Assembly: GCA_937879955.1 (NCBI GenBank)
Contig: CALFMK010000001.1
Span: 361,853 to 425,852 of the forward strand
Direction: 5' to 3'
DNA from: an uncultured bacterium
GTDB taxonomy: Bacteria; Patescibacteriota; Minisyncoccia; Phycocordibacterales; Phycocordibacteraceae
DNA length: 64,000 nt
Shown: positions 8,153 through 56,099 of the stretch, in pieces
Layout of the letters: each line of letters starts with the position of its first letter
Numbering within the stretch: the first letter of the stretch is position 1
Position numbers and translations under genes: made by a program
Notes under the pieces: model-generated
The model's input: only the letters and a program-made list of their open reading frames with translations
Databases searched by the model: none
What the model was told of the DNA's origin: nothing

Positions 8153-8379
8153 AGACAGTGCTAATGAAGTAATCGCCCGTATTACTCCAGGAATGAGAAT
8201 TCCTGCCCCAGTAATAGCCTCACCCTATTCCTATCGCATCATTTGTCAATGAAAAATCTGTCATGTCTACACTATAAAAAATCCAGATTTTCTTTATCTT
8301 TTCTGTCCTTTAGGACAACAATGAATACGCCATTTCCTGACGCCTGTCCTATATATAGGTATGCGCTACTATTCCTTCT

Positions 8380-9507
8380 ATGAATATCCGCACCGCAGCA
8401 TCCGCACTCTTCGCAGGTCTCCTGCTCTTCGCACCGTCCGTCTCCTTCGCCCAGGACTTCCCTGCCGTTGAGCAGCAGTACCTCGAGAAGGCGAAGGTTA
8501 TCGAGGCGACGCCTTCGGTAGACAAGACCGTTGAAGGCACGAGCGTCGTGACGAAGACGCAGACCCTCACCGTGAAGGTGCTCGAGGGCGTGGACGAGGG
8601 GAAGATCGTCTCCTTCGAGAACGACTACACCCAGCTCGAGACCGGAGACGTGTTCTACGTCCGGCACATCGTGGGTGGGTTCGACCTCGAGACCTGGTCC
8701 GTATCCGACCCGTACCGTCTCGACGTCCTCATCGGCATCGGTGTTATATTCCTCCTCCTGGTATTCCTCTTCGGCGGCATCCAGGGCGTCCGCGGCTTAG
8801 CCTCCCTCGCCGGCTCACTCGTGCTCATCTTCTACGTCCTCCTTCCAGGGATCCACGGCGGCATCTCCCCTATCCTCGTCTCGCTCGGCGTAGCGATGCT
8901 CATAATCGTGGCCGGGTCCTACATCACGCACGGCTTCACCAAGACGACGACCGCCGCCATGCTCGGCATGCTCGCGACCATCGTGATAACAGGGATCGGC
9001 ACCTATATAGCCATCCACATGGCACAGCTCTCCGGATTCACCTCCGACGAGAACGTCTACCTGAACTTCAGCTCGGACGGGACCATCGACATGATCGCGC
9101 TCCTGTTCGGCGGCATCCTGATCGGCCTCCTCGGCGTCCTCTACGACTGCGCCATCGGCCAGGCGGTCGCGGTCGAGGAGCTCTTCGCGGCCAGCAAGGA
9201 CTACACGCGCAGGCAGGTCTACCTACGGGGCCTTCGCATCGGGCGCGAACATATCGGCGCGCTCATCAACACGCTCGCTATCGCGTACGTGGGCGCGTCC
9301 CTCCCGCTCCTCCTCCTTCTCAAGCAGTCCACCGCGAGCCCGCTCTACATCCTCAACGGCGAGGTATTCGCCACGGAAATCATCCGCATCCTCATGAGCG
9401 GCATCGGCATCATCCTCGCCGTTCCCGTAACGACCCTCATCGCCACCACGATGCTGAAGGACGCGAAGCGCTCGGGCATCCCGGCACACTCCCACGCGCA
9501 CGGGTAG
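8380..9507 (+). CDS. YibE/F family membrane protein
   Basis: Signal peptide plus soluble N-domain, followed by about 7 TM helices with a YibE/F-like topology. Confidence 0.55.
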   Translation: MNIRTAASALFAGLLLFAPSVSFAQDFPAVEQQYLEKAKVIEATPSVDKTVEGTSVVTKTQTLTVKVLEGVDEGKIVSFENDYTQLETGDVFYVRHIVGGFDLETWSVSDPYRLDVLIGIGVIFLLLVFLFGGIQGVRGLASLAGSLVLIFYVLLPGIHGGISPILVSLGVAMLIIVAGSYITHGFTKTTTAAMLGMLATIVITGIGTYIAIHMAQLSGFTSDENVYLNFSSDGTIDMIALLFGGILIGLLGVLYDCAIGQAVAVEELFAASKDYTRRQVYLRGLRIGREHIGALINTLAIAYVGASLPLLLLLKQSTASPLYILNGEVFATEIIRILMSGIGIILAVPVTTLIATTMLKDAKRSGIPAHSHAHG

Positions 9508-9556
9508 CGCGATTGACTCCCCTGGCATTTGCTATAGAGTAGGGATAGCTCTATAC

Positions 9557-9569
9557 GCAATTTATTTGC
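9557..9569. promoter_or_regulatory. candidate Fur-family operator box GCAATTTATTTGC (copy 1, upstream of the CDF transporter)
   Basis: A near-palindromic AT-rich 13-mer, identical to a copy at 11947..11959 in the divergent promoter of the Fur-family regulator. Confidence 0.5.
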
Positions 9570-9594
9570 AGGTGCTATCCCGAAGGAGTGACTG

Positions 9595-10236
9595 ATGAAT
9601 ATCACCATGTCCGCAGACCACGCACACGACACCCCGAACAACCGCCATATCCCGATCTATACGTACGTATGGCTCTTGAGCCTGGGCATCGTGTCGCTTG
9701 AGCTCGCCGGATCCTGGTTCTCAGGAAGCCGCGCGCTCCTCGCTGACGTCGGCCACGTCTTGAGCGATACGCTGCTCGCGCTCGTGCCGCTCACGGCAGC
9801 GCTCTTCATGCGCGCGGGCGTGAGCAAGAAGCGCGTCGCGTTCCTGGCGAGCCTGGCGGCGGTCGCACTCCTCGTCTACGTCGGCCTGCACGTCGGTGGC
9901 GAGGCCTGGGAGGCGCTCATGGGCGAGGCGCATCACGAGCACGAGGTGAACGGCCTCATGCTGTTTGCGTTCTCAGGAGCGGCCGCGATCATGAACGTGT
10001 TCCAGCATCGCCTCCTCTCCCGGATCGATCCGGAGCATCACCATGGCGCGCACAAGGGGCTCCACTTCCACGTCCTCATGGATCTCGTGAAGAACCTCGT
10101 GCTCCCGGTGCTCGGTCTCCTCATCGCCTTCGAGCTCCTTCCTGACCACGCGGACCTCTGGGCAGCGCTCGCGATCGGCGGCCTCCTCATCGTCCGCGCG
10201 ATCATCCTGCTCGTGGGTATCCTGAAGCGCCGATAG
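9595..10236 (+). CDS. cation diffusion facilitator (CDF) family metal efflux transporter, TM domain only
   Basis: ALLADVGHVLSD and HGAHKGLHFHVLMDL motifs typical of CzcD/ZitB-type CDF TM helices II and V. It is His-rich and lacks the usual C-terminal cytoplasmic domain. Confidence 0.65.
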   Translation: MNITMSADHAHDTPNNRHIPIYTYVWLLSLGIVSLELAGSWFSGSRALLADVGHVLSDTLLALVPLTAALFMRAGVSKKRVAFLASLAAVALLVYVGLHVGGEAWEALMGEAHHEHEVNGLMLFAFSGAAAIMNVFQHRLLSRIDPEHHHGAHKGLHFHVLMDLVKNLVLPVLGLLIAFELLPDHADLWAALAIGGLLIVRAIILLVGILKRR

Positions 10237-10290
10237 GCACCGCAATGAATAACCCCCGTCGCTATCGCGACGGGGGTTTTATCTATTGCG

Positions 10291-10983
10291 CTACGCTGCG
10301 ACGCGCTCGAGCTTTCGCTCCCGGAGGAACGAGATGCCCGGGGCCGCGAGCGAGCGGAGGTCGGTATCGCGACGCGGGAGCCCGTACAGGATCCCCGCCA
10401 TCTTCTGATACGAGGCGATCTCCGCCCTACCCATGTCGAGGCTCCGATCCGTCCATCCGGCGTCCGAGAACGTCGGGACCCGGACGATCGCCGTACCTGC
10501 GGACTCGGCCAGCGAGCGCAGATGGTTCACCTGCGCGTACGCCGGAGAGCCGAGGATGTCGGCCTCGAAGCCGTCGCTGATGCAGCCGCAGTCGCAGACC
10601 AGGCGCAGCTGCATGCCGAGCTCGTCTCGCAGGACGCGGTCGAGCAGGTCCATGTTCCGCTCGGCGAGCGCCATGGACTCGAAGACCGTATGGAACGCGG
10701 CCATGTCCTCGGTCTGCACCCGCTCGAGCGTATCGAGGTCGAGTGCCGAGAACGGCATCATGGCCCACGGGTACATCCCGTGATCGCGGTGCTTGGCCCG
10801 GTCCATCATCTCGAGCACGGCGATGAGGACCGCCGGCTGCGGGACGTGATGGTCGGTGATGGCCGTCACGATCGAATCGATGGCCTTCGTCCCGAGGCAC
10901 TTCTGGTAGCGTGCGGCGATGAGCGGCACGTCGTCCGCGTGGAGCGGACGGTCGTAGGACGTTCCGGTAGCTGCATGGCACAT
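10291..10983 (-). CDS. hypothetical protein with CDCGC cysteine motif (possible metallocentre protein or assembly partner)
   Basis: Start chosen at the first Met after the 17-bp palindrome (alternative start at 11085). No recognisable family. Conserved-looking LVCDCGCISDGFEAD and HH/HRDH motifs. Downstream of the CooC-like ATPase on the same strand. Confidence 0.45.
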   Translation of the reverse strand: MCHAATGTSYDRPLHADDVPLIAARYQKCLGTKAIDSIVTAITDHHVPQPAVLIAVLEMMDRAKHRDHGMYPWAMMPFSALDLDTLERVQTEDMAAFHTVFESMALAERNMDLLDRVLRDELGMQLRLVCDCGCISDGFEADILGSPAYAQVNHLRSLAESAGTAIVRVPTFSDAGWTDRSLDMGRAEIASYQKMAGILYGLPRRDTDLRSLAAPGISFLRERKLERVAA

Positions 10984-11032
10984 GGCCAGCTCCTTATGGC
11001 TGCGTGAAAGGACAATGATGGCGCTGATGCAT

Positions 11033-11079
11033 CCATCGCCCGCGCCTCCTCGCTCTATACGCGGAGGCGCGGGCGATGG
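11033..11079. repeat. 17-bp perfect inverted repeat (CCATCGCCCGCGCCTCC / GGAGGCGCGGGCGATGG) with 13-nt loop
   Basis: Seen directly in the sequence. It lies between the CooC-like gene stop and the next gene start on the minus strand. There is no T-run, so it is not a canonical terminator. Confidence 0.7.
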
Positions 11080-11087
11080 GAACATCG

Positions 11088-11942
11088 CTAGAGCTTCGCC
11101 TTCTGTCGCTCCTCTTCGAACGCGCGCAGGCGCGCGAGCGTATCTTTCCCGTCTGCAGCCTTCTCCCGCAGGGTCGCGAGCATGGCCGTGCCTGCTGCGC
11201 GCGTCTCCTCGGAAAGGGCGGACATATCGTACGCGAGGAGCCCCGGATCGGCCGGGAGGCGACCGACGATACGGTCGCCCCACTCAGCATCGATCGCTTC
11301 CGTGAGCTCGGTCGCGCCCTGGACCTTGTTCACGACGACATAGAGCGGAAGTCCGGTGCGGTCGGCTATGCCCGCGACCTGCGCGAGCACGCGGATGCTG
11401 TTGCCATGCGGCTCGACCACCACGACCACGGCGTCCGCGCCGAGGAAGAGCCCGAAGTTCATCATGTCCGCGCCCGCGACGCCGTCGATGATCACGTCAG
11501 CACTGTTCCCTTCATCGAGGAGCGGGAGATAGTACTTGAGCGCGGCCGAATGCCCGTGCGCGCAGCGATCCGAGAACAGCACGTCCTCGCTACCGAGCCC
11601 GACCGCGATAAGGTCGACATTGTCCGAGACCGGCATGGAGACCTCGTCCGTGTACGGGTCCTTCGGCGACACCGTGAATGTCGGGAGTGCGCGGCCGTCG
11701 AGGACGATATCCTGCCAGCGTCGGTCCTCCCTCTGCCCCACCATCGCGCGGAACTCGTCATGACGGCGATGCATCGTCGGCGTCTCGCTCGTGACCGTAG
11801 CGCCGAGCAGGGACGCGAGGTCCATATTGTGGTCTGCATCGATGGCCAGGACCTTCCGTCCCTGTTCCTCGAGCAGCCGCGTTACGAGCCAGCTCACCGT
11901 ACTCTTCCCGCTCCCTCCCTTCCCGATGAATGCCAGTTTCAT
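11088..11942 (-). CDS. CooC/MinD-ParA-type P-loop ATPase (putative metallocentre insertion ATPase)
   Basis: Deviant Walker A (GKGGSGKST) then VLAIDADHNMDLASLLG, matching CooC-family nickel-insertion ATPases. Confidence 0.6.
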   Translation of the reverse strand: MKLAFIGKGGSGKSTVSWLVTRLLEEQGRKVLAIDADHNMDLASLLGATVTSETPTMHRRHDEFRAMVGQREDRRWQDIVLDGRALPTFTVSPKDPYTDEVSMPVSDNVDLIAVGLGSEDVLFSDRCAHGHSAALKYYLPLLDEGNSADVIIDGVAGADMMNFGLFLGADAVVVVVEPHGNSIRVLAQVAGIADRTGLPLYVVVNKVQGATELTEAIDAEWGDRIVGRLPADPGLLAYDMSALSEETRAAGTAMLATLREKAADGKDTLARLRAFEEERQKAKL

Positions 11943-11946
11943 ATAT

Positions 11947-11959
11947 GCAATTTATTTGC
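11947..11959. promoter_or_regulatory. candidate Fur-family operator box GCAATTTATTTGC (copy 2, divergent promoter between the CooC-like gene and the Fur-family gene)
   Basis: Identical 13-mer to 9557..9569, and the flanks also agree (ATA.GCAATTTATTTGC). Confidence 0.5.
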
Positions 11960-12015
11960 GTTTACTATACAGGGGAGGGGAAGTAATTGCAAACGGCTTG
12001 CGTTTGTTCCATACT

Positions 12016-12444
12016 ATGTCCATGAAAGCCACCGCGATCGATCCTGCGTCCCTCCTGCGCGAGGCCGGGCTCCGTGTCACCCCGGGCCGCCTCGAGCTCC
12101 TCAGCATCCTCGCGAGAGAGCCCAAGCCCCTCGCCGTCCACCAGATCGAGAAGAAGATGAAGGGCGCGCTCAACCAGGTCACGCTCTACCGCGCACTCGA
12201 GGCGCTCGAGAAGGCCGGCATCGTCTCGCGCGTGAACCTCGAGCACGACCACGCGCACTTCGAGCTCTCCGTAGGCCGTCCGCACCACCATCACGCGGTC
12301 TGCCGCGCCTGCGGGCTCGTGGAGGATATCGAGGTACCGCATGCGGCCCTGCCCCAGAAGGAAGCGGCGAAACAAGCGAAGGCGTTCGCGTCCATAGACC
12401 GCTACTCTCTCGAGTTCTTCGGCCTCTGCCGCGGCTGCGCGTAG
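12016..12444 (+). CDS. Fur-family metalloregulator (Fur/Zur/PerR-like)
   Basis: Winged-helix N-domain (LRVTPGRLELLSILA...VTLYRAL) and a C-terminal metal site (HHHHAVCRACG...CRGC). Start set at the first ATG after the divergent promoter. Confidence 0.75.
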   Translation: MSMKATAIDPASLLREAGLRVTPGRLELLSILAREPKPLAVHQIEKKMKGALNQVTLYRALEALEKAGIVSRVNLEHDHAHFELSVGRPHHHHAVCRACGLVEDIEVPHAALPQKEAAKQAKAFASIDRYSLEFFGLCRGCA

Positions 12445-12559: not shown

Positions 12560-13228
12560 ATGAGAATCCTAGTGATCGAGGACGAAGAGAAGATCTCCCG
12601 CTTCCTGCGGGACTCGTTCGAGGCCGAGTACTTCGCGGTAGACGTCGCGGAAGACGGCGAGCGCGGCTCTCTCTTCGCCCGCACCAACGAGTACGACCTC
12701 GTCGTGCTCGACAACATGCTCCCGAAGAAGGACGGCCTTCAGGTCTGCGAAGAGATCCGTGCAGCCGGGAAGACCATGCCCATCCTCGTCGTATCGGTGA
12801 AGACCGACGCGATGGACAAGGTCGACCTCCTGAACGCGGGCGCCGACGACTACCTCGCGAAGCCCTTCGTTCTCGAGGAGCTCCTCGCCCGCGCCCGCGC
12901 GCTCATGCGCCGCCCCGTCTCCATTGAGAGCGACGTGCTCACGGTCGAGGACATCACGCTCGATACCACGAGCGGCACCGCCAAGCGCGGCGACCGCGAC
13001 CTCGGACTCACCCGCAAGGAGTACATGCTCCTCCAGTACCTGATGCGCAACGAAGGCATCGTGCTCTCTCGCGGCATGATCCTGGAGCACGTGTGGGACA
13101 TGAGCGTGGACATCTTCTCGAACACCATCGAGTCTCACATCCTCTCGCTCCGCAAGAAGCTCAACGACATGGGACGCGAGCGCCTCATACAGACCGTATC
13201 GGGCCGAGGCTATCGCATCGGCGTCTAA
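12560..13228 (+). CDS. OmpR/PhoB-family response regulator
   Basis: Receiver domain (VIEDEE, DLVVLD, K-105 region) plus a C-terminal winged-helix (ILSLRKKL...SGRGYRIG). Confidence 0.85.
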   Translation: MRILVIEDEEKISRFLRDSFEAEYFAVDVAEDGERGSLFARTNEYDLVVLDNMLPKKDGLQVCEEIRAAGKTMPILVVSVKTDAMDKVDLLNAGADDYLAKPFVLEELLARARALMRRPVSIESDVLTVEDITLDTTSGTAKRGDRDLGLTRKEYMLLQYLMRNEGIVLSRGMILEHVWDMSVDIFSNTIESHILSLRKKLNDMGRERLIQTVSGRGYRIGV

Positions 13229-13374
13229 CCCATCGGTACGAGAATGCGCCTGCCGGCACATCGCTGGCAGGCGTTTTCGTATGTATGCACTCACCCGTGA
13301 CTTTATCTTTTTTCTAGATTTTCTTTATAAAAAATTTATCTCTTTGTTATGTTCTCTTCAGTATCTTCATACCT

Positions 13375-14064
13375 ATGAAGAACACAGGGACACTCGCGTT
13401 CGGCGACATGCGCGATGCTACGGTGCGCACGCGCGCCGAGATAGGGTTCGACGAGCGGGATACCTGGCGCGACGCGTCAGCCACGTTCACGGATCATACC
13501 CTCACGATCCAAGGTCACCCGGTGATGGAAGACTGGGAGGAGGGGTACATGAAGCGCCTCGCGCACATCTGCGCGGCGCAAGGCGGAACCGTCCTCGAGG
13601 TAGGATTCGGCATGGGCATCTCGGCGCGCCACATTCAGCGGCATCCTATAGACCGGCACATCGTGATAGAGGCGAACTGGGACGTCTTCGAGCAGCTCGT
13701 CTCGTTCGCGAAGTCCGCTGCGCATCCGGTCTCTCCCCTCTTCGGGTTCTGGGAGGACACGACCGCCCTGCTTCCGGACGCGAGCGTCTCCGGCATCCTC
13801 TTCGATACCTATCCGCTCACAGAGGAGGAGATACACAGGAACCACTTCCCGTTCTTCAAGGAGGCGCATCGTCTCCTGCGCCCTGGCGGCGTACTCACCT
13901 ACTACTCAGACGAGATCGACCGCTTCTCTGCAATGCATCGCTCCCTGCTCGAAGAGGCCGGGTTCTCCGACATACAGGGAGAGATATTCCCGGTCACGCC
14001 GCCCGCGGACTGCCAGTACTGGAAGAGCGCGACGATACTCGCCCCTATCGTACGAAAATCATGA
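13375..14064 (+). CDS. guanidinoacetate N-methyltransferase (GAMT)-like class I SAM-dependent methyltransferase
   Basis: Matches eukaryotic GAMT along the whole length (HPVMEDWEEGYM; GGTVLEVGFGMGIS; ILFDTYPLTEE; PPADCQYW; C-terminal APIVRKS). Confidence 0.7.
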   Translation: MKNTGTLAFGDMRDATVRTRAEIGFDERDTWRDASATFTDHTLTIQGHPVMEDWEEGYMKRLAHICAAQGGTVLEVGFGMGISARHIQRHPIDRHIVIEANWDVFEQLVSFAKSAAHPVSPLFGFWEDTTALLPDASVSGILFDTYPLTEEEIHRNHFPFFKEAHRLLRPGGVLTYYSDEIDRFSAMHRSLLEEAGFSDIQGEIFPVTPPADCQYWKSATILAPIVRKS

Positions 14065-14474
14065 CTACACTCCCGAAAGGCGCATATGGACTCCTGCTCG
14101 CGTTCGACGGCTACGATGCCTCGAGCGAACGGTGCGCCGATGTCGACCTGCTGCGCTCGGTCCTGCTCGAGCTTCCCGAGACCATAGGCATGCGCAGGCT
14201 CGGCGAGCCGCACACGGTATCCGTCGACGAGCCAGGCATCTCCGGGCTCTCCGGATTCACGTTCATCATGGAGTCGCACATAAGCATCCATACGTATTCC
14301 GAGCGCGGATTCGTCACGGCGGACATCTATTCCTGCAAGTGGTTCGACGCCGACGTGGCGGCGCGCTTCCTCGCCGACGCGTTCGCGATACCCTCCTATG
14401 AGACCAGCCATGTCGTCCGCGGCCTTCGTTTCGACAAGCTCCCGATCGCTTCAGGGGCGCGCGAGCGTCCCTGA
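14061..14474 (+). CDS. speH: class 1b pyruvoyl-dependent AdoMet-decarboxylase-like proenzyme (SpeH-like, which could equally be an Arg/Orn decarboxylase)
   Basis: The self-cleavage motif FIMESHISIHTYSE (ES-H-S) is present. ATGA overlap with the upstream methyltransferase. Confidence 0.75.
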   Translation: MTTLPKGAYGLLLAFDGYDASSERCADVDLLRSVLLELPETIGMRRLGEPHTVSVDEPGISGLSGFTFIMESHISIHTYSERGFVTADIYSCKWFDADVAARFLADAFAIPSYETSHVVRGLRFDKLPIASGARERP

Positions 14475-14485
14475 ATAACTGTTCT

Positions 14486-15235
14486 TTGACCAACTGGGAG
14501 AGTGCTATGACATCAGCGATACAGGTACGGAACGTCGAGAGGAAAGACCTGGCGACGCTCGCTCAACTAGAGACTGCCGTATGGACGGGCCTCGGCACGC
14601 CCATCCTTACGGAGAGCGTACTGACTGAATGGTTCGACGACGGGTCGCCGTTCTTCTTCATCGCGGAATTGGACGGCGTACCCTGCGGCTACTACTTCGG
14701 ACGCCGCATACGGTTCTCGATGGAAGAGCACCGCGCGTTCTTCAACCCTGCGCTCATGACGGGCCAAGGATGGAGCGCGCACCCGCATGTCCCTGACGGG
14801 AACTGCCTGTATGGGATCAATATCGTTTCCACCATACGAGGATCGGGACGGGCCCTGTACCAGGCCGTGCATGACCTACTCGAGGTGATGGGTCTCGATT
14901 ATTCGGTTGGCATCACGCGCCTCTCGGGCCTCGACGCCTATCTCTCTGGCATCGAGGCCAGAAACGGCGGGATCCTTCCATACGAGCAGGATGCGATCGC
15001 GCTCTGGTACGCGCACGAGAGCGCCGAGCGTCTCGGGCTTCGTTCCTGGAGCGAATGCCAGGCGAAGCCGGAGCTCGAAGGGCTGCCAGCACTCGAGAAT
15101 CCTGACCCCGTGCTAGCATTCCATGTACAAGGCACGACGTTCGGGATCCTCGGCATCCTTCCGGGATATATCGTTCCGGACCCGGAGAGCCGGGACTACG
15201 GAGCGACGATCGTATCCGCCTTCCCTCACCGATAA
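14486..15235 (+). CDS. GNAT-family N-acetyltransferase
   Basis: Motif A R/Q-x-x-G-x-G/A is present (TIRGSGRALYQ), with a beta-alpha architecture typical of GNAT. Confidence 0.55.
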   Translation: MTNWESAMTSAIQVRNVERKDLATLAQLETAVWTGLGTPILTESVLTEWFDDGSPFFFIAELDGVPCGYYFGRRIRFSMEEHRAFFNPALMTGQGWSAHPHVPDGNCLYGINIVSTIRGSGRALYQAVHDLLEVMGLDYSVGITRLSGLDAYLSGIEARNGGILPYEQDAIALWYAHESAERLGLRSWSECQAKPELEGLPALENPDPVLAFHVQGTTFGILGILPGYIVPDPESRDYGATIVSAFPHR

Positions 15236-15238
15236 GCC

Positions 15239-17227
15239 ATGTTCGCATTCACCTACGCAGCTGCCATATTAGCGACCGCATTCGCGGTTGCGGCAGCTGC
15301 TCTTCTTTTCAGGAGACGACGCATGCTCGACCTCGCGCTCGCGGCATATCTCTTCTCCGGGACGCTCTGGATAGGCGGGAACGCGGCAGCTGACATTTCC
15401 TACGTACCCTGGTTCCTCGTGCTCTCGAGCCAGATCGCCTTCTTCGGCGGCATCCTCAATCTCTTCTGCTTCATCCTGCTCGTGGACCTGCTCCTCGACA
15501 ACGCGTTCCCGCCATGGCGCAGGCTGTTCCTCTACGGCATACCGTGCCTCGTCCTTGCCGTATTCGGCTTCTCGCCGTACGGGATCGTGAGCATGTCCTT
15601 CCCGGCCGGCATGCCCGCGCAGATCGTCCCGGGCGTGATCTACTCGTTCGCGCTCGTCTTCTACATCGCGGGCCTGGCGTACGGCCTCATACGCCTGTGC
15701 CGCAGCCTTTCCCGCGAGTACGACCAGCTCCGCCGCACCCAGCTCCTCTACGTCCTCATCGGCCTCATCCTCACCATGACCGGGCAGGTGGTCTTCGACG
15801 TGATCCTGCCGCTCCTTGGCGAGCTACGCTTCTATACGGTAGGTCCGCTCACTTCGGTATTCTTCGGCTTCGGGTGCGCGTACGCGATCGCGCGGCATCA
15901 TCTCCTCGATATACGCATCGTGGCGCAGCGCGGCCTCATCTATTCCGTCCTGCTCGCCGGGATCGTCGGGCTCTATGTCGGGCTCGTGATGATGATGAGC
16001 CTCGTGCTGAGCGACTCGACCAGCGCGAGCATCTTCTTCTCGGCAGGTATCACGGTCGTCGCAGGCATCTTCGGTGCGCCCGCCGTCGAGCGGTATTTCC
16101 GGAAAGCGACCGACCGCTTCTTCTTCAAGGATATCTATGACTACGGCGCCGCGCTGCACACGCTCTCGAGCGTGCTGCACGCGAACGTCGCCTTCGCGGA
16201 CCTCGTGCGCGAATCGGAATCTGCGCTCCGTGAGATCCTCCGCGCCACCTACGTGCACGTCACGCTCGGCAGCTCCACAAGGAACGCGCCTGCGAAAGAC
16301 GCGTCCTTACGCATCCCGATCGAGCTCGATGGGGATGATATCGGCTGCATCTATATAGGAGAGAAGCGTTCAGGCGACCCCTACTCCCCCGAGGACATCC
16401 AGCTGCTCGAGACGTTCGCGTACCAGGCCGCGACCGCGCTCTCCCGCGCGCAGCTCCATGCGGAGGCGGAGCAGCATGCGGCAGCCCTCGAGACGAAGGT
16501 ACGCGAGCGCACCCGCGAGCTCTCCGAGGCCCATGACCGCGAGCGCCAGATGATAAATGACATATCGCACAACCTGCAGACCCCGCTGACCGTGCTCCAG
16601 ACGAAGCTTGACCAGCTCAAGCCCACCATGAAGGACGCGGCGGAGATCCGCTCCTTCGAGCAGTCTCTCGCCGGCTTCTCCGCGTTCGTGTACGACCTCC
16701 TCGCGCTCGCCCGCCTCGAGGGCGGCAGGAAGCCCGAGTTCGAGCCGGTCTCCTTGAGCGCGCTCCTGCGCGACCTCGCCGAAGAGGTTGAGACGATCGC
16801 CGCGGATCGCGGCATCAGCGTGAAAAGAGACATCGCGAACGGCATGCGCGTGTCAGGCGACGAGCGCAGGCTCCGCGAGGCGTTCATGAACGTCGCGAGC
16901 AACGCGCTCAAGTACATGCGCGAGAGAGGCGAACGGCTCGTATCGCTCGTCGCGCATGCCGAGGACGGCATGGCCGTCGTCACGATTAAGGATACGGGTA
17001 TCGGGATCGCGAAGAGCGACCTTCCTCATGTGTTCGAGCGCTTCTATCGCGGCAAGGAGACACCGAAGGAGATGAAAGGCACGGGCCTCGGCCTCCCTAT
17101 CTCGAAGCTCATCGTCGAGCAGCACGGAGGCACTATCGCGGCCGAGAGCGAGCCCGGAGCCGGTACCATCATAGAGATACGGCTCCCGCTCATGCACGGC
17201 CAGGAGCGCTCCAGCCTCACCGACTAG
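15239..17227 (+). CDS. sensor histidine kinase with multi-TM (about 7 helices) N-terminal sensor domain
   Basis: H-box HNLQTPLTV and HATPase_c N/G boxes (NALKYM, DTGIGI, GTGLGLPISK) are present, and the N-terminal 280 aa are hydrophobic. Confidence 0.85.
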   Translation: MFAFTYAAAILATAFAVAAAALLFRRRRMLDLALAAYLFSGTLWIGGNAAADISYVPWFLVLSSQIAFFGGILNLFCFILLVDLLLDNAFPPWRRLFLYGIPCLVLAVFGFSPYGIVSMSFPAGMPAQIVPGVIYSFALVFYIAGLAYGLIRLCRSLSREYDQLRRTQLLYVLIGLILTMTGQVVFDVILPLLGELRFYTVGPLTSVFFGFGCAYAIARHHLLDIRIVAQRGLIYSVLLAGIVGLYVGLVMMMSLVLSDSTSASIFFSAGITVVAGIFGAPAVERYFRKATDRFFFKDIYDYGAALHTLSSVLHANVAFADLVRESESALREILRATYVHVTLGSSTRNAPAKDASLRIPIELDGDDIGCIYIGEKRSGDPYSPEDIQLLETFAYQAATALSRAQLHAEAEQHAAALETKVRERTRELSEAHDRERQMINDISHNLQTPLTVLQTKLDQLKPTMKDAAEIRSFEQSLAGFSAFVYDLLALARLEGGRKPEFEPVSLSALLRDLAEEVETIAADRGISVKRDIANGMRVSGDERRLREAFMNVASNALKYMRERGERLVSLVAHAEDGMAVVTIKDTGIGIAKSDLPHVFERFYRGKETPKEMKGTGLGLPISKLIVEQHGGTIAAESEPGAGTIIEIRLPLMHGQERSSLTD

Positions 17228-50422: not shown

Positions 50423-50890
50423 ATGCTGGTACCCTTCCTATATATGAGCGCACTCATAGAGAACAAGAAGGCGCGCCTCCGGTTCGAGGTGCTTGAGACC
50501 TACCAGGCAGGCCTCGAGCTCCAGGGGTTCGAGGTGAAATCCGTCCGGGCGAAGCTCGGCAGCCTCGACGGCTCCCGCGTGATCGTGCGCGGGGGCGAGG
50601 CCTTCATCGTCGGCATGACGGTCCCTCCCTACCAGGCCGCGAACGCGCCCAAGACCTATGACCCAGAGCGTCCGCGCCGCCTCCTCCTCTCGCGCAAGGA
50701 GATCGTCGAGCTGCTCGAGGCAGAGTCGAAGAAAGGATTGACACTAGTGCCTTTGGAACTGTATAATAGTGGCAGATACCTGAAGGCACGCATCGCCATC
50801 GTCCGCGGAAAAGGCAAGGCTGACAAGCGCGAAGACATGAAGCGCATGGAGGCTAAGAAGGAAGCGGACCGTGCGATGCGCCAGAAGTAG
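50423..50890 (+). CDS. smpB: SsrA-binding protein SmpB
   Basis: Conserved SmpB blocks (IENKKA..F, GFEVKSV, RKLLL.K.EI). The real start is probably at 50444. Confidence 0.8.
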   Translation: MLVPFLYMSALIENKKARLRFEVLETYQAGLELQGFEVKSVRAKLGSLDGSRVIVRGGEAFIVGMTVPPYQAANAPKTYDPERPRRLLLSRKEIVELLEAESKKGLTLVPLELYNSGRYLKARIAIVRGKGKADKREDMKRMEAKKEADRAMRQK

Positions 50891-50913
50891 CTTGAGAGAA
50901 TGAATGTCTGAAA

Positions 50914-51138
50914 GTGACGAGCCAGATAACGGAGGAAGAGATGGCGAAGCACGAAGACGGTATGCGTATCGACCCGGCCGCGCGTGAGAGCGGCTGCCAG
51001 TTCATGGCCAAGATCGAGATGTCCGGAGAGGACGATCGGTACACCGATCCGATCTGGGACAGCGAGCAGCCCGGCTTCGCCGAGGACGACAGCGGCAGGA
51101 ACGATACCCGCCTGCCGCTCGACCAGCTTCTCCGCTGA
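50914..51138 (+). CDS. small acidic hypothetical protein between smpB and ssrA
   Basis: 74 aa with genome-typical GC3 codon bias. Very acidic. No family recognised. Confidence 0.3.
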   Translation: MTSQITEEEMAKHEDGMRIDPAARESGCQFMAKIEMSGEDDRYTDPIWDSEQPGFAEDDSGRNDTRLPLDQLLR

Positions 51139-51258
51139 CGCAGCGGCATCACTACCGGAGAATCGCTTGGGATAGCCGGCGATTCTCCTCACTTTCAGGT
51201 ATTCATTCTGTGCGGGCCCCTCCCGTTCTGGAACCGTTCTCCTGACCGGTTCCAGAAC

Positions 51259-51667
51259 GGGGGTGACCGGCTTTGACGGTCCTGTACTTTGAGAGACGTG
51301 CGGCGCGGTGGAAGGATGCTGACCACCTAAAAACGCATTCACCCAAACTTGCCAAGAACACTCTTGCAAGCGTGAAGTCCCCGTACTTCGGTATGAAGGA
51401 TTTCGCGTTCGCTTACGCGTAAAAGCTTCGCGCTTTCGCCTGAGCGACGTTCATGCAGTCCCGTTCCTTCAGGGGTCTGTATGGGCGGAATCATCTGAAG
51501 GATCGGTATCGCGGCTTTCCCAGGCCACGGCTTAAAAGACGGGATCAGGCAGGGGCGTTTTCGCTAACGTTCCTATTCCCCTGCCGAAGCTTCAACGTTA
51601 GCTACGCGCCGTAGACTCGCTCTTGAAGCAGGATTCGGACCGGAGTTCGACTCTCCGCACCTCCACC
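51259..51667 (+). ncRNA. ssrA: tmRNA (ssrA), standard one-piece
   Basis: 5' GGGGGUGACCGGCUUUGACGG matches the tmRNA 5' consensus. The 3' tRNA-like end is GGACCGGAGTTCGACTCTCCG-CACCTCC-A-CC, whose acceptor is complementary to the 5' end. It lies 370 bp downstream of smpB. Candidate tag ORF is ...KSPYFGMKDFAFAYA*. Confidence 0.7.
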
Positions 51668-51693
51668 GATATAGAACTATGTAGAAATACATA

Positions 51694-51733
51694 GAACATT
51701 AGAAAACCGCCTCATGGGCGGTTTTCTAATGTT
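51694..51733. terminator. 18-bp perfect hairpin (GAACATTAGAAAACCGCC-TCAT-GGCGGTTTTCTAATGTTC) between ssrA and the convergent DUF305 gene
   Basis: Seen directly in the sequence, with T-tracts inside the 3' arm on both strands. Confidence 0.55.
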
Positions 51734-51746
51734 CTACAGCTAGGAG

Positions 51747-52142
51747 CTACTTCCCGTACCAAGCTTTCTGCCAATCTTGCATCTCTTTAATCTCGGCGTT
51801 CTGTGCAGAGATTATGTTCTTTGCCAGGTCCTTTATCTCTTGATGCTTTGCATCCTTGAGGGCTGCCTCTGCCATTACTACTGCTCCCTGATGATGCATG
51901 ATCATCTCGCTCAAGAACGCTTGATCAAATGCATCTCCTGTTTTTCCAGAGAGACCCTGCATCATGGAATCCATTTCTCCCTGCATCCCGTTCATTGGAC
52001 CTCCCATGGTCGTTCCGTCGGCCATCATATGGCCACCAGTATTTACTACTGGCTCGGAAACCTTATTCATGCCCAGAGCGTATCCACCGCCGGCACCGAT
52101 AATAAGTGCGACGAGCCCGATAACAACTACGTTCTTTTCCAT
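51747..52142 (-). CDS. DUF305 family protein (secreted or membrane-anchored)
   Basis: DQAFLSEMIMHHQGAVVMAE...AEIKEMQDW matches the DUF305 signature. It is in a lower-GC region. Confidence 0.6.
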   Translation of the reverse strand: MEKNVVVIGLVALIIGAGGGYALGMNKVSEPVVNTGGHMMADGTTMGGPMNGMQGEMDSMMQGLSGKTGDAFDQAFLSEMIMHHQGAVVMAEAALKDAKHQEIKDLAKNIISAQNAEIKEMQDWQKAWYGK

Positions 52143-52182
52143 AGAGTTTAATTAGATTAGATAAGTAGAGAGTTTGCTAAAT

Positions 52183-52551
52183 CTATGGAGCCTTAGGGTG
52201 AAGAATCCCGCGTGAGAATAGCTCTTGCAACAATGGAGGTGCTGGATAGAAACGTCTGCGATATCCGGGCGGCCGTTCGGGCCTTGGAACAATGGGCCAA
52301 ACCCTTGCGAGAATAAAGACAGGTATGGCAAACGTGAGAATCTCGACAAGTGCGATAGTAAACGTATTCTGCCAGCTTGTTATGTGGTCCAAGGCTGACA
52401 TGGGACAGAGCGAAGTTTCACCCTGCATGAAGGGACATCCGCCAGGTGTCTGGTCCATAGGCATGGCCATTAAAAACAGCATCAGGAGAGGAACGGTGAG
52501 CACGAGGAGTAGCGTCCCCCAGGAACCAGCCCTCTGTATCTGCTCGGTCAT
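52183..52551 (-). CDS. small membrane protein with Met/Cys-rich motif (MPMDQTPGGCPFMQGETSLCPM), a putative metal-binding site
   Basis: Two or three TM helices. The Met-rich Cys pair is reminiscent of Cu(I)-binding motifs. Confidence 0.4.
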   Translation of the reverse strand: MTEQIQRAGSWGTLLLVLTVPLLMLFLMAMPMDQTPGGCPFMQGETSLCPMSALDHITSWQNTFTIALVEILTFAIPVFILARVWPIVPRPERPPGYRRRFYPAPPLLQELFSRGILHPKAP

Positions 52552-52630
52552 GCACTCATTCTATACCTATTGTTTATGGACAAAAGGTACACTTCTTCTA
52601 GGTATTACTGGCTCACAGCACATAAATTTT

Positions 52631-53089
52631 ATGACCCCCAGAGACACGTCATACGGCAAGCTGGCCCTAATGGCCGGACTTCACTTAATCGCAATGTTCT
52701 TCCTCATGTTCGCGATGGTAAATACTTTTGCGAACGCCATTCCGAATATTAACTTCGTCTATATGGCCGCTCTTATGACCGCGCCGATGCTCATTCTCGA
52801 GATACTTCTTATGGGAATGATGTACAAGGACAGGAAATTAAATGTGACGGTTGTTTGTTTTGGCCTTATACTCCTTGCGGTTTCATTCTTACTTATTCGA
52901 TTCCAGACAGGTGTTGGAGACAGGGGGTTTCTCCAATCCATGATTCCTCATCACTCAGGAGCAATTCTCATGTGCGAGAAGGCAAACATCACTGATCCTG
53001 AGATCAAACAGCTGTGCGACGACATTATTCTCAGCCAGCGACAGGAGATAACTCAGATGAAAGAAATTCTTAGTCGACTGGACCGATAA
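52631..53089 (+). CDS. DUF305 family protein (second copy)
   Basis: Two TM helices, then MIPHHSGAILMCE...QEITQMKEIL, which is the DUF305 signature. Start set at MTPRD, since the upstream ORF-track extension overlaps the minus-strand gene. Confidence 0.55.
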   Translation: MTPRDTSYGKLALMAGLHLIAMFFLMFAMVNTFANAIPNINFVYMAALMTAPMLILEILLMGMMYKDRKLNVTVVCFGLILLAVSFLLIRFQTGVGDRGFLQSMIPHHSGAILMCEKANITDPEIKQLCDDIILSQRQEITQMKEILSRLDR

Positions 53090-53324
53090 ATGGCAAATCG
53101 AGGTAGGTTCTAATCTGAAAGCACCCGACTTCCATGTTTGTATGGACTGGTTGGCCTCTGCTCATTTTGACACCCTACCAACTGTCCGCTACAGAAAGGA
53201 AATACGAAGCCCTGCTTTCCAGTCATGAGGCTCTAACTTCGTGTAGCCACTTCCATCCAGTTTCAATAAAAGGCCTCTTCGGAGGCCTTTTATGTTGGCA
53301 CGTCTTGACGGTTTTTTTGGGGTT

Positions 53325-53981
53325 TTATTCTGCGCGCAGACTATCTACTATCTGGTCCACAACACTATCAGGGATGACCTGATCTTCTGAGCGGTCATAC
53401 CACATGGCTATGACTGGATACGAGGGATTCTTTGTCTCGATGAACGTTACGAAGAAAATCTCATCGCCGCACTCTTCGAAACCATTGCACGCAGGCAGAT
53501 ACCCGACCTTAACTACCGTTAGCCCGTGGGCGTTGACGCTCTTGGCGCAGGAAAGCGGGTATAGACCCTGATCGCAATACTTGTGAATGTCCCAGGTGCG
53601 AAGCGTATCTTCACGCGAAGGCTCGCGCGGGGTCGGATACTGTGCGAACAATGCGCTCTCTGCCGACATGAACCAGAGCGTGCCATTCTTGCCGGCAACT
53701 CCTAAGTAACGGTGATCGCACTGATCTTCGGGGGTACGGAGTTCCGGCGGACAGTCGCCCCGCTCCCTCACCGCTTCCTCTATAGGGCTTTCGAGCGAGT
53801 ACTCGAAGGCGATGCCTAGGGCGGGGCTTACATAGGTGCGCGTAGAGTACGTATCTTGCACGCTGTGGTTCTCCCCTTCCCTGGTCACTCCTAGCATGAA
53901 TCCGAGAACTGCCACGATGACGAGCGCGACCCCGAGCAGCAGCGCGCGGAGGAGCGGAGAATTGATTATGGTCTTATACAT
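53325..53981 (-). CDS. membrane-anchored hypothetical protein with Cys-rich extracytoplasmic domain
   Basis: N-terminal TM and several Cys pairs. No family recognised. Confidence 0.45.
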   Translation of the reverse strand: MYKTIINSPLLRALLLGVALVIVAVLGFMLGVTREGENHSVQDTYSTRTYVSPALGIAFEYSLESPIEEAVRERGDCPPELRTPEDQCDHRYLGVAGKNGTLWFMSAESALFAQYPTPREPSREDTLRTWDIHKYCDQGLYPLSCAKSVNAHGLTVVKVGYLPACNGFEECGDEIFFVTFIETKNPSYPVIAMWYDRSEDQVIPDSVVDQIVDSLRAE

Positions 53982-53985
53982 ACGA

Positions 53986-54795
53986 TTATGTTGCTAGCCA
54001 GCCCCCGTCAACATAGAACGTTGCCCCCGTGCAATAGCTTGACTCATCGGAAGCAAGGAACGCGACCAGTGCTGATACCTCCTCTGGCTTTCCCATTCGC
54101 TTGAGCGGTATCCCTGCAAGCATCTGATCGCGCGTCTCACTCGTGGCATCGGAATTTCGCACCATGGGCGTATCTATGGCTCCTGGAGCGATCGCGTTTA
54201 CAAGAATGCCGTGCGGCGCAAGCTCGATCGCCAGCGCTTCAGTCATGGCGATAACTCCGCCCTTCGACGCCGCGTAATGCACGCCTCCAGCGATGCCGAT
54301 TCCCACCTGCCCAGAGGCTACGGAGGAGATATTGATTATCCTCCCGCCTCCATCCCTAGCCATCTCCTGTGCAGCGCGCTGAGCGCACAGGAACTGTCCC
54401 TTGAGATTCACATCGAGCATGCGGACCCATGCTTCTTCCGTAAGCTCAAGCGCAGGCGCGGTCTCGTAGATGCCTGCGTTATTCACCAGGATATCCAGCC
54501 GACCATACTTCATGATGATGCCGGCAATGACCTCATTGACTTCATGCTTCTGGGATACGTCGAGACGGAAGCAGGTGGACTCGCTATCGCACACCTCATT
54601 CACCTCCTGCATGACCCTGCGGCAATCGTTCAGATTCACATCGGTAATGATCACCGTTGCTCCCTGCTTGGCGAGCGTGAGCGCGTGAGTGCGACCCATT
54701 CCCCTTCCTGCCCCCGTAATGAGCGCGACTTTGTCTTTGAGGCTGAACATGCGCATGGCGTTAGGTTGGATAATGTATGGCGCGTCTTCTAGCAT
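53986..54795 (-). CDS. SDR-family oxidoreductase (short-chain dehydrogenase/reductase)
   Basis: TGAGRGMG cofactor motif, NNAG, and the catalytic S...YAASK triad. Confidence 0.85.
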   Translation of the reverse strand: MLEDAPYIIQPNAMRMFSLKDKVALITGAGRGMGRTHALTLAKQGATVIITDVNLNDCRRVMQEVNEVCDSESTCFRLDVSQKHEVNEVIAGIIMKYGRLDILVNNAGIYETAPALELTEEAWVRMLDVNLKGQFLCAQRAAQEMARDGGGRIINISSVASGQVGIGIAGGVHYAASKGGVIAMTEALAIELAPHGILVNAIAPGAIDTPMVRNSDATSETRDQMLAGIPLKRMGKPEEVSALVAFLASDESSYCTGATFYVDGGWLAT

Positions 54796-54857
54796 CGAGC
54801 GGTGCTCAGGAAAAGGAAAAGCACCTTGTCACGCGTGATGATCTCGTACGCCATATA

Positions 54858-55391
54858 TCAGTTCATGAGCATTACTGCGTAATTGATAGCCACGGCAATC
54901 ACGACCCAGGCGAGATAGGGCGCGAGCAGCCATGCAGCAGCCTTCGATGAGTTCTTCACCCGCAGGATAAGGACCAGCACGGATACGCCGACGACGACCG
55001 CTGCCCATAAGGCAGGCACGAGCTGATGAATCCCGAAGAAGAGATAGTTCCAGAGAAGGATCAGGAGCGCGTTGCCCATGTACACGAGCACCGTGCTCCG
55101 GAACGCTCGTGTCTGCTCTTTCTGCGCATCACAAAAGATGCTTAGCGATAGGACCGTAGTTACGAACAGCGTTCCCCATATGGCCGCGATGACGAGCTCG
55201 GGCGGAGTCCATAGCGGCGTATGCAAGCTTCCGTACCAACCCAGACCGAGAGTCGTGATGATGCCGATCGCAAAGAACACCAGGGTGGCTGCGTAGAAGA
55301 TGAAGAAGTCACGGACAACCCTGTCGCTAAACGCGCCCGGGGGCAGGCTCGTCACTGCAGGGATGTTAGGGGTACTCATGTCTTGGATCAT
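54858..55391 (-). CDS. tspO: TspO/MBR (tryptophan-rich sensory protein) family
   Basis: Five TM helices with Trp-rich loops (WNYLFF, LLAPYLAWV). Confidence 0.65.
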   Translation of the reverse strand: MIQDMSTPNIPAVTSLPPGAFSDRVVRDFFIFYAATLVFFAIGIITTLGLGWYGSLHTPLWTPPELVIAAIWGTLFVTTVLSLSIFCDAQKEQTRAFRSTVLVYMGNALLILLWNYLFFGIHQLVPALWAAVVVGVSVLVLILRVKNSSKAAAWLLAPYLAWVVIAVAINYAVMLMN

Positions 55392-55457
55392 AGTCGTAAT
55401 CTGAGGATAGCTTCCTATATGTTCGTCATGTAACCTTTCATGCCTTCCGCCGGGCTT

Positions 55458-55943
55458 CTACAGAGGCGGCTCCGCCGGATCGACTCGAGTGAGTACCTGG
55501 TCCGTGCCTGTACCGAACGTAAAGTCTCCCCACCTGACCCAGGCAGGCGAGAGGCGGTAGAACTTGAGCTCGCTGCTATCAAGATGCGATAGCGGTATGC
55601 CGTACTGCTTGTCGGTCATGAGCCTGTGCACGAAGCCAGTGAGCAGCGGGTCATTGGTGGCGGTGTACGTAAGGTCAGCAACATCCCCTTCTACCTGAAT
55701 AGTCTTCGGAGTTCCCGCCTCTGACACAACGAAAGCAGCTTTCTGATTGGAAGTCAGGTCGGCAGCCTTTCGAGTGTTCTTGAGGGTTATGAAATAAATA
55801 TTGAATGCGTCATCGCACGTATAGTAAATCGTGCGTGCGTGCGGTTCTCCGGCACGAGAGACAGTGGCCAACACGCCAACATCATGGTCGACCAAGAATG
55901 ACAGAGCCTCGTCTCGCTCTCCTTCTGTGTCTGACTCCTTCAT
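55458..55943 (-). CDS. pyridoxamine 5'-phosphate oxidase-like FMN-binding split-barrel protein
   Basis: GVLATVSRAGEPHARTIYY... is typical of the PNPOx-like / general stress protein 26 fold. Confidence 0.55.
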   Translation of the reverse strand: MKESDTEGERDEALSFLVDHDVGVLATVSRAGEPHARTIYYTCDDAFNIYFITLKNTRKAADLTSNQKAAFVVSEAGTPKTIQVEGDVADLTYTATNDPLLTGFVHRLMTDKQYGIPLSHLDSSELKFYRLSPAWVRWGDFTFGTGTDQVLTRVDPAEPPL

Positions 55944-56099
55944 GAAGCAATGGTACACCTTAATACAGCAACTCAATAGTCTGTATAGGAAGCCCGCTAT
56001 CCTTAAAACAAGGGTCCTAGGAGCCTGGCTTAAAAAGGGCTCTAGGAAACCACCTCCCTCTGGATTACAGCCTGTGTGAGTCCTTAATCAGAGCGCTAC

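Follow-up and report, generated by a model that had tools for sequence, protein, structure and literature searches.

In the CqsA/CqsS, LuxM/LuxN and LqsA/LqsS signalling systems, biosynthetic genes adjoin the gene for a multi-transmembrane (multi-TM) kinase that has minimal extracytoplasmic loops and a partner response regulator. A comparable arrangement occupies positions 12560–17227 of a 64,000-nucleotide stretch of contig CALFMK010000001.1 (the window), from an uncultured bacterium of the Patescibacteria, or Candidate Phyla Radiation (CPR). Here, five open reading frames (ORFs) on the plus strand encode an OmpR/PhoB-type response regulator, a methyltransferase of the guanidinoacetate N-methyltransferase (GAMT) family, a SpeH-like pyruvoyl-dependent decarboxylase, a GNAT-fold enzyme and a polytopic sensor histidine kinase, in the order given by an earlier note made from the sequence alone. 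As in the described systems, autoregulation is likely. Unlike them, the cassette has a putative signalling role, its kinase has an added cytoplasmic GAF domain, and its product would be a guanidino amine rather than an alpha-hydroxyketone or an acyl-homoserine lactone. All components come from known superfamilies, and the logic of enzymes plus receptor kinase has precedents; literature searches gave no cassette of GAMT-like, SpeD-like, GNAT and kinase genes, consistent with the earlier note's impression that the arrangement is undescribed.

The closest described enzymes can be compared in the same way. GAMT itself (EC 2.1.1.2; structures 1xcj and 3orh) shares with the window methyltransferase full-length homology, an identical motif I and a conserved Glu/Asp pair, but the window enzyme lacks a 13-residue loop, belongs to a prokaryotic and mostly CPR group, and is partnered by decarboxylases, acylating enzymes and a sensor kinase rather than by the amidinotransferase AGAT. 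BlsL of blasticidin S biosynthesis, a bacterial enzyme termed GAMT-like by its authors, transfers a methyl group to the delta-N of a guanidine derived from arginine, and efficient methylation requires acylation of the adjacent amine (PMC5572114). A guanidine methylase that works in tandem with an acylating enzyme, as we propose for the cassette, therefore has a precedent, although BlsL, likened here by description and not by sequence, acts on a peptidyl nucleoside within an antibiotic cluster and has no two-component link. The arginine decarboxylase SpeDA and the ornithine decarboxylase SpeDC share with the SpeH-like protein the class-1b fold, the Ser, His and Cys residues and occurrence in CPR bacteria, and SpeDA has lost the same Pro (PMC10407285). 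By contrast, that study reports no clustering or fusion with GAMT-like genes and mentions neither guanidinoacetate nor an association with GAMT, and the SpeH-like protein lacks the SpeDC signature. Searches for GAMT with S-adenosylmethionine decarboxylase (AdoMetDC) in Parcubacteria, for GAMT homologues with agmatine and for quorum sensing in Patescibacteria found nothing relevant, and the literature searched held no description of bacterial guanidino-N-methylation of agmatine of the type proposed here. Saskemycin, encountered in the methylagmatine literature, belongs to an unrelated, SznE-type pathway.

We propose, tentatively and at a little less than even confidence, that the cassette makes a methylated and acylated arginine-derived metabolite of the agmatine type, that the operon also encodes the sensor kinase, that the adjacent regulator controls the operon and that the kinase senses the product or an intermediate. 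The SpeD-fold pyruvoyl enzyme would be a neofunctionalised basic-amino-acid decarboxylase rather than an AdoMetDC, most likely converting L-arginine to agmatine. The GAMT-family enzyme would then use S-adenosylmethionine (SAM) to methylate the guanidino group of a carboxylate-free amine, presumably at the substituted (delta-type) nitrogen by analogy with GAMT and BlsL, and the GNAT-fold protein would modify this molecule with the help of an acyl thioester, most likely through acylation of the primary amine. Finally, the operon, whose last gene encodes the polytopic 7TM-GAF kinase, would be controlled in a feedback loop by this kinase and the regulator. The most economical ligand would be the final agmatine-type compound, methylated and acylated, or one of the pathway intermediates, so that sensing would parallel CqsA/CqsS or LuxM/LuxN. 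The gene identities, folds, catalytic residues, conserved order, fusions and non-homologous replacements set out below are observed, whereas the substrates, the order of steps, the binding of the repeats by the regulator and the nature of the ligand are inferred. A self-contained signalling and biosynthesis unit typical of Patescibacteria is the best explanation of the cassette as a whole.

The regulator gene (12560–13228, 222 aa) is followed by a hairpin resembling an intrinsic terminator (13246–13274, plus strand), with a 12-bp stem containing 9 G-C pairs and a T-run, TTTTCG. Because of this hairpin, the regulator gene and the four genes behind it are separate units, and the single interrupted operon envisaged in the earlier note gives way to a regulator gene, a terminator, a promoter region and a tightly coupled four-gene operon. 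Within the operon, the methyltransferase gene (13375–14064, 229 aa) overlaps the SpeH-like gene (14061–14474, 137 aa) by the 4 bp ATGA, as previously described. The gap between the SpeH-like gene and the fourth gene (14507–15235, 242 aa) is 32 bp and not 12 bp, as the start is most likely ATG 14507 rather than TTG 14486: a GGGAG Shine-Dalgarno sequence lies 6 nt 5' of this ATG, and the 242-aa form appears in the database record. The kinase gene (15239–17227, 662 aa) begins 3 bp, rather than 4 bp, downstream, at a start backed by an N-terminal MFxFTYxAAIL motif that is conserved among orthologues.

Gene order is conserved well beyond this genome. When one genome per GTDB species was scanned with a profile, 153 methyltransferase relatives emerged, of which 80 loci were examined and annotated with the window proteins and further queries; counts of related loci given here are over 80 or 82 loci. 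The order methyltransferase, SpeH-like gene, fourth gene, kinase recurs in 15 of 80 species representatives, so that the conservation proposed as a check in the earlier note is present, and the regulator lies upstream in most of the 15. Because the order recurs in these 15 genomes and in two metagenome contigs that carry the same cluster in unrelated flanks, it is far beyond chance. The closest named relatives with the cassette are Candidatus Paceibacterota metagenome-assembled genomes, and among the related loci are records labelled Gammaproteobacteria or Bdellovibrionales. In addition, the methyltransferase is fused to an AdoMet_dc decarboxylase in six of its top 120 homologues, and such fusions occur in some of the species representatives.

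There are three recurrent cassette types, each forming its own methyltransferase block in a neighbour-joining ordering. Type A is that of the window, namely regulator, methyltransferase, SpeH-like decarboxylase, GNAT-fold gene and 7TM-GAF kinase, and comprises the 15 representatives and two metagenome contigs. Its variants include two loci (L010 and L017) in which the fourth slot holds a 221–225-aa protein that is not recognisably related, one locus with an additional GntF/PNMT-like amine N-methyltransferase (an NCBIfam GntF match), and a Falkowbacteria locus (L009, 6157–6976) in which the gene for a multi-TM protein of 201 aa, weakly matching MtN3/SWEET (PQ-loop-like), separates those of regulator and methyltransferase, with five TTTAT-type repeats at 11-bp spacing 5' of it. 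Type B, in 13–15 loci, combines an EamA-family exporter, a PurD-like ATP-grasp ligase, the methyltransferase and a kinase that has a homologous membrane sensor yet lacks the GAF domain; in seven examples (L037, L039, L045, L046, L055, L056 and L059) the cassette lies at roughly 4.3–9.4 kb of the locus. The methyltransferase and kinase genes overlap in this type, one locus (L045) also has a Pro-containing SpeH-like gene, and a double-receiver protein without an output domain occurs in four loci, 3' of the cassette in L037, L045 and L059. Type P, in 14 loci, many of them from Saccharibacteria, places a pyridoxal phosphate (PLP)-dependent Orn/Lys/Arg decarboxylase next to the methyltransferase. 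The best solved relatives of this decarboxylase are lysine and ornithine decarboxylases and the chlorovirus arginine decarboxylase. Six type P loci have a FeeM-like N-acyl synthase of the GNAT type, and four of these also have the 7TM kinase (L036, L053, L068 and L074). In five loci labelled Saccharibacteria (those four and L070), the FeeM-like and PLP decarboxylase genes lie within about 5 kb 5' of the methyltransferase on the opposite strand, and in L036 and L053 the decarboxylase gene is divergent from that of the methyltransferase. Two loci (L020 and L060) pair the methyltransferase with a GntF-like (guanitoxin-type) amine N-methyltransferase.

Across these types, the SpeH-like decarboxylase (25 loci) and the PLP decarboxylase (14 loci) never occur together, and the fourth gene, the ATP-grasp ligase and the FeeM-like N-acyl synthase are mutually exclusive. 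An amide-forming step would be common to all three types. The homologous membrane sensor region, by contrast with these replaced enzymes, persists and adjoins methyltransferase relatives in 38 of 82 loci. The GntF-like N-methyltransferases, ATP-grasp ligase and FeeM-like synthase of the sister cassettes would fit modification of one and the same molecule at its amine end.

The SpeH-like protein has the class-1b AdoMetDC (SpeD/SpeH) fold (Pfam AdoMet_dc, 5.8e-21) and carries the ESHISIHTYSE self-processing motif recognised in the earlier note. In an alignment with the T. maritima and A. aeolicus enzymes, its S72, H77 and C92 fall on S63, H68 and C83 of T. maritima AdoMetDC, and self-cleavage is predicted between E71 and S72. 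The loss of catalytic residues that would have undermined a decarboxylase assignment is therefore not seen and, with the Glu-Ser needed for self-processing and the catalytic His and Cys all retained, the protein should be an active pyruvoyl enzyme. Its likely substrate is another matter. The Pro of the HTWPE motif is fully conserved in bona fide AdoMetDC and lost in arginine decarboxylase derivatives (Li et al. 2023, PMC10407285); S80 of the SpeH-like protein sits on this residue (T. maritima P71), and of 82 subfamily members, 76 have a residue other than Pro there, as do all six methyltransferase–decarboxylase fusions. SpeDC ornithine decarboxylases have a distinct signature, Q..ETSL.SGHF...Y, with diagnostic Gln, Thr, Phe and Tyr residues around the processing site (PMC10407285). 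This signature is not present in the SpeH-like protein, which reads FIMESHISIHTYSE in the corresponding segment. By these motif diagnostics, on which our comparison with SpeDA and SpeDC is based, the protein matches, in sequence, the SpeDA pattern of an AdoMetDC-like core without the invariant Pro, and its arginine decarboxylase activity is predicted. Its score against NCBIfam TIGR03330 is 60.7 bits, under the cut-off of 75.65, and in 14 related loci the unrelated PLP-dependent Orn/Lys/Arg decarboxylase fills its place. The lost Pro, the absent SpeDC signature, the sub-cut-off score and the PLP replacement together argue for decarboxylation of a basic amino acid and not of SAM. Of the two routes offered in the earlier note, the same evidence thus favours arginine to agmatine and speaks against decarboxylated SAM (dcSAM), and the public annotation of the protein as S-adenosylmethionine decarboxylase is probably wrong in substrate.

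The methyltransferase is about 45% identical to mammalian GAMT over its full length, with phmmer E-values of 9e-47 to human GAMT (3orh; residues 26–228 of 229) and 2e-46 to rat GAMT (1xcj); the next-best solved structures, an aminopropyltransferase and KsgA, match at E values of about 3e-3. The motifs PVMEDWEEGYM, VLEVGFGMGIS and PPADCQYW noted earlier are present, VLEVGFGMGIS being SAM motif I and identical to that of GAMT, and homologues carry a precomputed PF27704 (GuanidinoAc_N-MeTrfase) tag in the source database. With GAMT as the best match, the protein does not group with rRNA or tRNA methyltransferases, the outcome that would have told against the earlier assignment. Rarity in bacteria, on the other hand, was overstated: in addition to the 153 relatives among GTDB species representatives, 871 homologue clusters are found at E<=1e-5, those with names being mostly Parcubacteria or Paceibacterota.

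Two features of the methyltransferase bear on its substrate. E55 and D144, which correspond to rat GAMT E45 and D134, are invariant in 23 relatives and again in about 80, and the 13-residue loop CNLTSWGELMKSK of mammalian GAMT (rat 168–180) is deleted in the window enzyme and in all of these roughly 80 prokaryotic relatives, in which an invariant acidic TYYSDE motif marks the deletion junction. We take E45 and D134 of rat GAMT to bind and deprotonate the guanidino group, and the backbone amides of the L170/T171 loop presumably hold the carboxylate of guanidinoacetate. Because this loop is deleted and the acidic pair is kept, the substrate is probably a guanidino group without a neighbouring carboxylate, which supports the guanidino methylation suggested in the earlier note. 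A guanidino compound that lacks a carboxylate and is made by a decarboxylase would therefore most simply be agmatine from arginine. The Joint Genome Institute (JGI) annotation of relatives as guanidinoacetate N-methyltransferase is, like the decarboxylase label, probably wrong in substrate.

Some relatives of the methyltransferase occur in other settings. In Lyngbya sp. CCAP 1446/10 (locus L063, 3199–14576), a GAMT-like gene lies in a natural-product cluster with genes for an aminotransferase, a DHDPS-family enzyme, a second methyltransferase and a 2261-aa nonribosomal peptide synthetase (NRPS) with a terminal thioesterase domain, a context that suggests methylation of a guanidino building block. 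In a Silanimonas locus (L052, 6878–9094), an ORF scan found a pair of GAMT-like copies separated by about 0.8 kb, of which the second matches only from about query residue 78. Actinomycete, Gemmatimonadota and Silanimonas loci place the methyltransferase among amidohydrolase, ordinary GNAT, MFS and unknown genes; these contexts are uninformative, and none is blasticidin-like.

The fourth protein, publicly annotated as hypothetical, has no sequence match in Pfam, NCBIfam or PDB, and belongs to a small family (312 representatives among 1.84 billion). Its AlphaFold2 model (AF2; pLDDT 95.5) has a GNAT fold with the beta4–alpha3 pyrophosphate-binding loop (R/Q-x-x-G-x-G/A). The earlier designation as GNAT therefore stands at the level of fold, whereas the proposed N-acetylation is the least certain part of the earlier reading, as the structurally nearest proteins are malonyl-thioester decarboxylase domains, the GNAT-like decarboxylases of CurA, GphF and SxtA from polyketide synthase (PKS) loading modules, and not N-acetyltransferases. 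CurA and malonyl-CoA decarboxylase use a His-Ser/Thr dyad, with His in place of the general-acid Tyr of canonical GNATs (PMC3701320). In a profile–sequence alignment, H206 of the fourth protein, in DPVLAFH, falls on the DPVLGFH segment of GphF; this candidate catalytic His is invariant in the 24 closest homologues and present in 25 of 54 diverse family members. Across the same 54 members, R138 is invariant and R8, D14, W42, H94, Y168, D200, D225 and S228 are nearly so. The fourth protein differs from the CurA GNAT_L domain, GphF, SxtA and malonyl-CoA decarboxylase in standing alone, with 242 aa and no acyl carrier protein or PKS partner, and in having R138, D200, D225, S228 and Y168 as its invariant residues instead of a His-Thr dyad. 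The protein is likely to catalyse a reaction that depends on an acyl thioester and has a cationic substrate, and its role is probably, though uncertainly, acyl-CoA-dependent modification of an amine. An amide-forming step of some kind is supported by the sister cassettes, in which an ATP-grasp ligase or a FeeM-like N-acyl synthase replaces the fourth gene.

In the kinase, a hydropathy profile of residues 1–285 has about nine hydrophobic segments with short loops, followed by GAF, HisKA and HATPase_c domains (Pfam). A HisKA_7TM (PF16927) match is on record for the orthologue in locus L003, whereas our local Pfam scan of residues 1–304 gave no match to this or any other family. Several observations indirectly favour sensing of the cassette's own product by this kinase: it is translationally coupled to the enzymes through the 3-nt gap; the pairing of methyltransferase and kinase persists across three cassette types in which other enzymes are replaced; the sensor lies within the membrane, as do receptors for lipophilic autoinducers; and type B includes an exporter.

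The regulator has a receiver domain (Pfam Response_reg, 1.5e-26) and a winged-helix output domain (Trans_reg_C, 3.1e-24), as expected of the OmpR/PhoB type, and scores under every NCBIfam equivalog cut-off. Orthologues lie 5' of the methyltransferase gene in 16 related loci, and eight loci likewise have a hairpin and T-run 3' of the regulator gene (L002, L008, L009, L010, L015, L021, L022 and L038). Between the hairpin and the methyltransferase start of the window, in an AT-rich stretch of a genome with otherwise 61% G+C, lie three phased direct repeats (13302–13341, plus strand), TTTATCT at 13302, TTTATAA at 13324 and TTTATCT at 13335, with spacings of 22 and 11 bp, which are candidate regulator sites or a promoter element. 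The window has 10 copies of TTTATCT, where 2.2 would be expected, and two of them lie upstream of the methyltransferase gene. Among 18 orthologous regulator–methyltransferase spacers, 11 contain TTTATC (2.5 expected; maximum 8 in 1000 shuffles) and five contain it at least twice (0.18 expected), and spacings of 11 or 22 bp recur in L008, L009, L010 and L017. Phased direct repeats are binding targets of OmpR/PhoB-type regulators. Because such repeats and a terminator lie upstream of the operon, we infer that the regulator controls the methyltransferase–decarboxylase–GNAT–kinase operon in a putative feedback loop. The earlier note suggested that the module is under the control of the two-component system or supplies its signal; genomic context backs this idea, which is plausible. 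Further copies of TTTATCT at 8293 (87 bp 5' of a YibE/F gene), 10278 and 17427 (minus strand) might be additional sites of the same regulator. Rfam matches in the 64-kb window are tRNAs and a tmRNA only, with no riboswitch, such as a guanidine riboswitch, among them.

A number of points weigh against our proposal. About half of the methyltransferase relatives have no nearby kinase, which indicates that signalling is not an inherent role of this enzyme. Arginine is preferred over ornithine, lysine or another amino acid solely from the guanidino specificity of the partner enzyme. Pro-containing SpeH-like proteins are paired with the methyltransferase in two loci of the ATP-grasp type and in two kinase-free loci. 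The fourth protein more closely resembles decarboxylases than transferases, the His proposed as catalytic varies within its family, and malonyl-CoA and fatty-acid synthesis are often missing in CPR bacteria, making the acyl donor uncertain. The TTTATC-type repeats are AT-rich and their controls are simple shuffles. Finally, export of the product and its binding by the kinase are putative and read from genomic context. In the main alternative, the chemistry is the same and the kinase senses an external cue instead, such as a host compound, the supply of arginine or agmatine, or envelope or osmotic stress, and induces a guanidino metabolite that is secreted or protective (an effector, antimicrobial or solute). 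We regard this as possible, if on the unlikely side. The terminator and phased repeats suggest a regulator-controlled operon, polytopic kinases with short loops also sense the state of the membrane, the EamA exporter of the ATP-grasp cassette suits a secreted effector equally well, and many methyltransferase relatives, including that of the Lyngbya NRPS cluster, lack a kinase. However, the coupling of the kinase to the enzymes by a 3-nt gap is less readily accommodated, the methyltransferase–kinase pairing outlasts enzyme swaps in three cassette types, which is easier to understand if the kinase recognises the cassette's own product, and the cassette has no importer or catabolic enzyme.

Other explanations change the chemistry itself. 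The three folds mirror those of SpeD, SpeE and SpeG, so the cassette might be a polyamine module in which the SpeH-like protein is a true AdoMetDC making dcSAM, the GAMT-like protein an aminopropyltransferase and the GNAT protein a polyamine N-acetyltransferase. Spermidine synthases share the class I methyltransferase fold, source databases label the decarboxylase AdoMetDC, the methyltransferase has weak PDB matches to aminopropyltransferases (E 3e-3), and a few of its relatives lie near Pro-containing SpeH-like proteins. We nonetheless consider this improbable, as the Pro that is invariant in AdoMetDC is lost and the score is under the NCBIfam AdoMetDC cut-off, replacement by a PLP-dependent Orn/Lys/Arg decarboxylase is sensible only for decarboxylation of an amino acid, and the GNAT protein is not SpeG-like. 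Moreover, motif I and the N-terminal cofactor/substrate segment of the methyltransferase (VLEVGFGMGIS and PVMEDWE) are nearly identical to those of GAMT, E45 and D134 are kept, and the GAMT match is 40 orders of magnitude above that to an aminopropyltransferase. Even less probable is methylation of a protein arginine in the kinase, the regulator or a ribosomal protein, with the neighbouring genes devoted to unrelated metabolism. Yeast RMT2 is a GAMT-family delta-N arginine methylase, the guanidino-binding residues would suit a peptidyl arginine as well, and the methyltransferase and kinase genes overlap in the ATP-grasp cassette; against these stand the fusions to a small-molecule decarboxylase, the systematic partnership with amino-acid decarboxylases, amine N-methyltransferases, ligases and an exporter, the relative in an NRPS cluster and, again, the half of relatives that have no kinase nearby. 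A genuine guanidinoacetate methyltransferase making creatine or the precursor of a creatine-like phosphagen, to which the roughly 45% identity with mammalian GAMT and the JGI label would point, is hardly to be expected, since the carboxylate-binding loop is deleted in every prokaryotic relative, no cassette contains AGAT or a kinase partner for such a phosphagen, and the constant partner is a decarboxylase, which removes the carboxylate.

Elsewhere in the window, a block that looks devoted to metal homeostasis (8380–12444; Pfam labels from the identical contig L001) lies directly 5' of the regulator gene. It encodes a membrane protein of the YibE/F type, a cation-efflux protein of the CDF family, the product of a 330-aa ORF without a family match (annotated in L001 as a gene of 230 aa), a ParA/CbiA-like ATPase and a regulator of the Fur family; in the orthologous locus L002, ZnuABC takes the place of this block. 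Farther downstream, within 50423–56000, smpB (50423–50890) and the tmRNA gene (51259–51668) are followed by a segment of lower G+C content (0.50–0.55 versus ~0.62) that encodes two DUF305 proteins, an SDR protein, TspO and a PNPOx-like protein. This segment may be an island inserted beside the tmRNA gene; no integrase was found near that gene among scanned ORFs of at least 120 aa.

CPR bacteria make up a large share of bacterial diversity, are mostly uncultured and live attached to hosts, and to our knowledge almost no signalling or secondary metabolism has been characterised in them. As the cassette is conserved in many CPR lineages, it offers a clonable four-gene system in which to look for a new arginine-derived metabolite and to ask whether it acts as a signal. 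Three enzyme groups of interest also emerge, namely a clade of prokaryotic GAMT homologues whose substrates are probably decarboxylated guanidino amines, another neofunctionalised subfamily of AdoMetDC, at present labelled AdoMetDC in public databases, and a small unannotated GNAT family related to the decarboxylases of PKS loading modules. If the product of the cassette is the ligand of its kinase, the system would give a handle on how episymbionts sense their own density or their hosts. More broadly, and more doubtfully, N-methylated and N-acylated agmatine-type amines, synthesised by enzyme sets that can stand in for one another and perceived by 7TM kinases of a dedicated family, could constitute a new class of cell–cell signals in Patescibacteria and some other lineages. 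If true, this class would be the first native quorum-sensing-like or symbiont–host signalling chemistry in these ultra-small bacteria.

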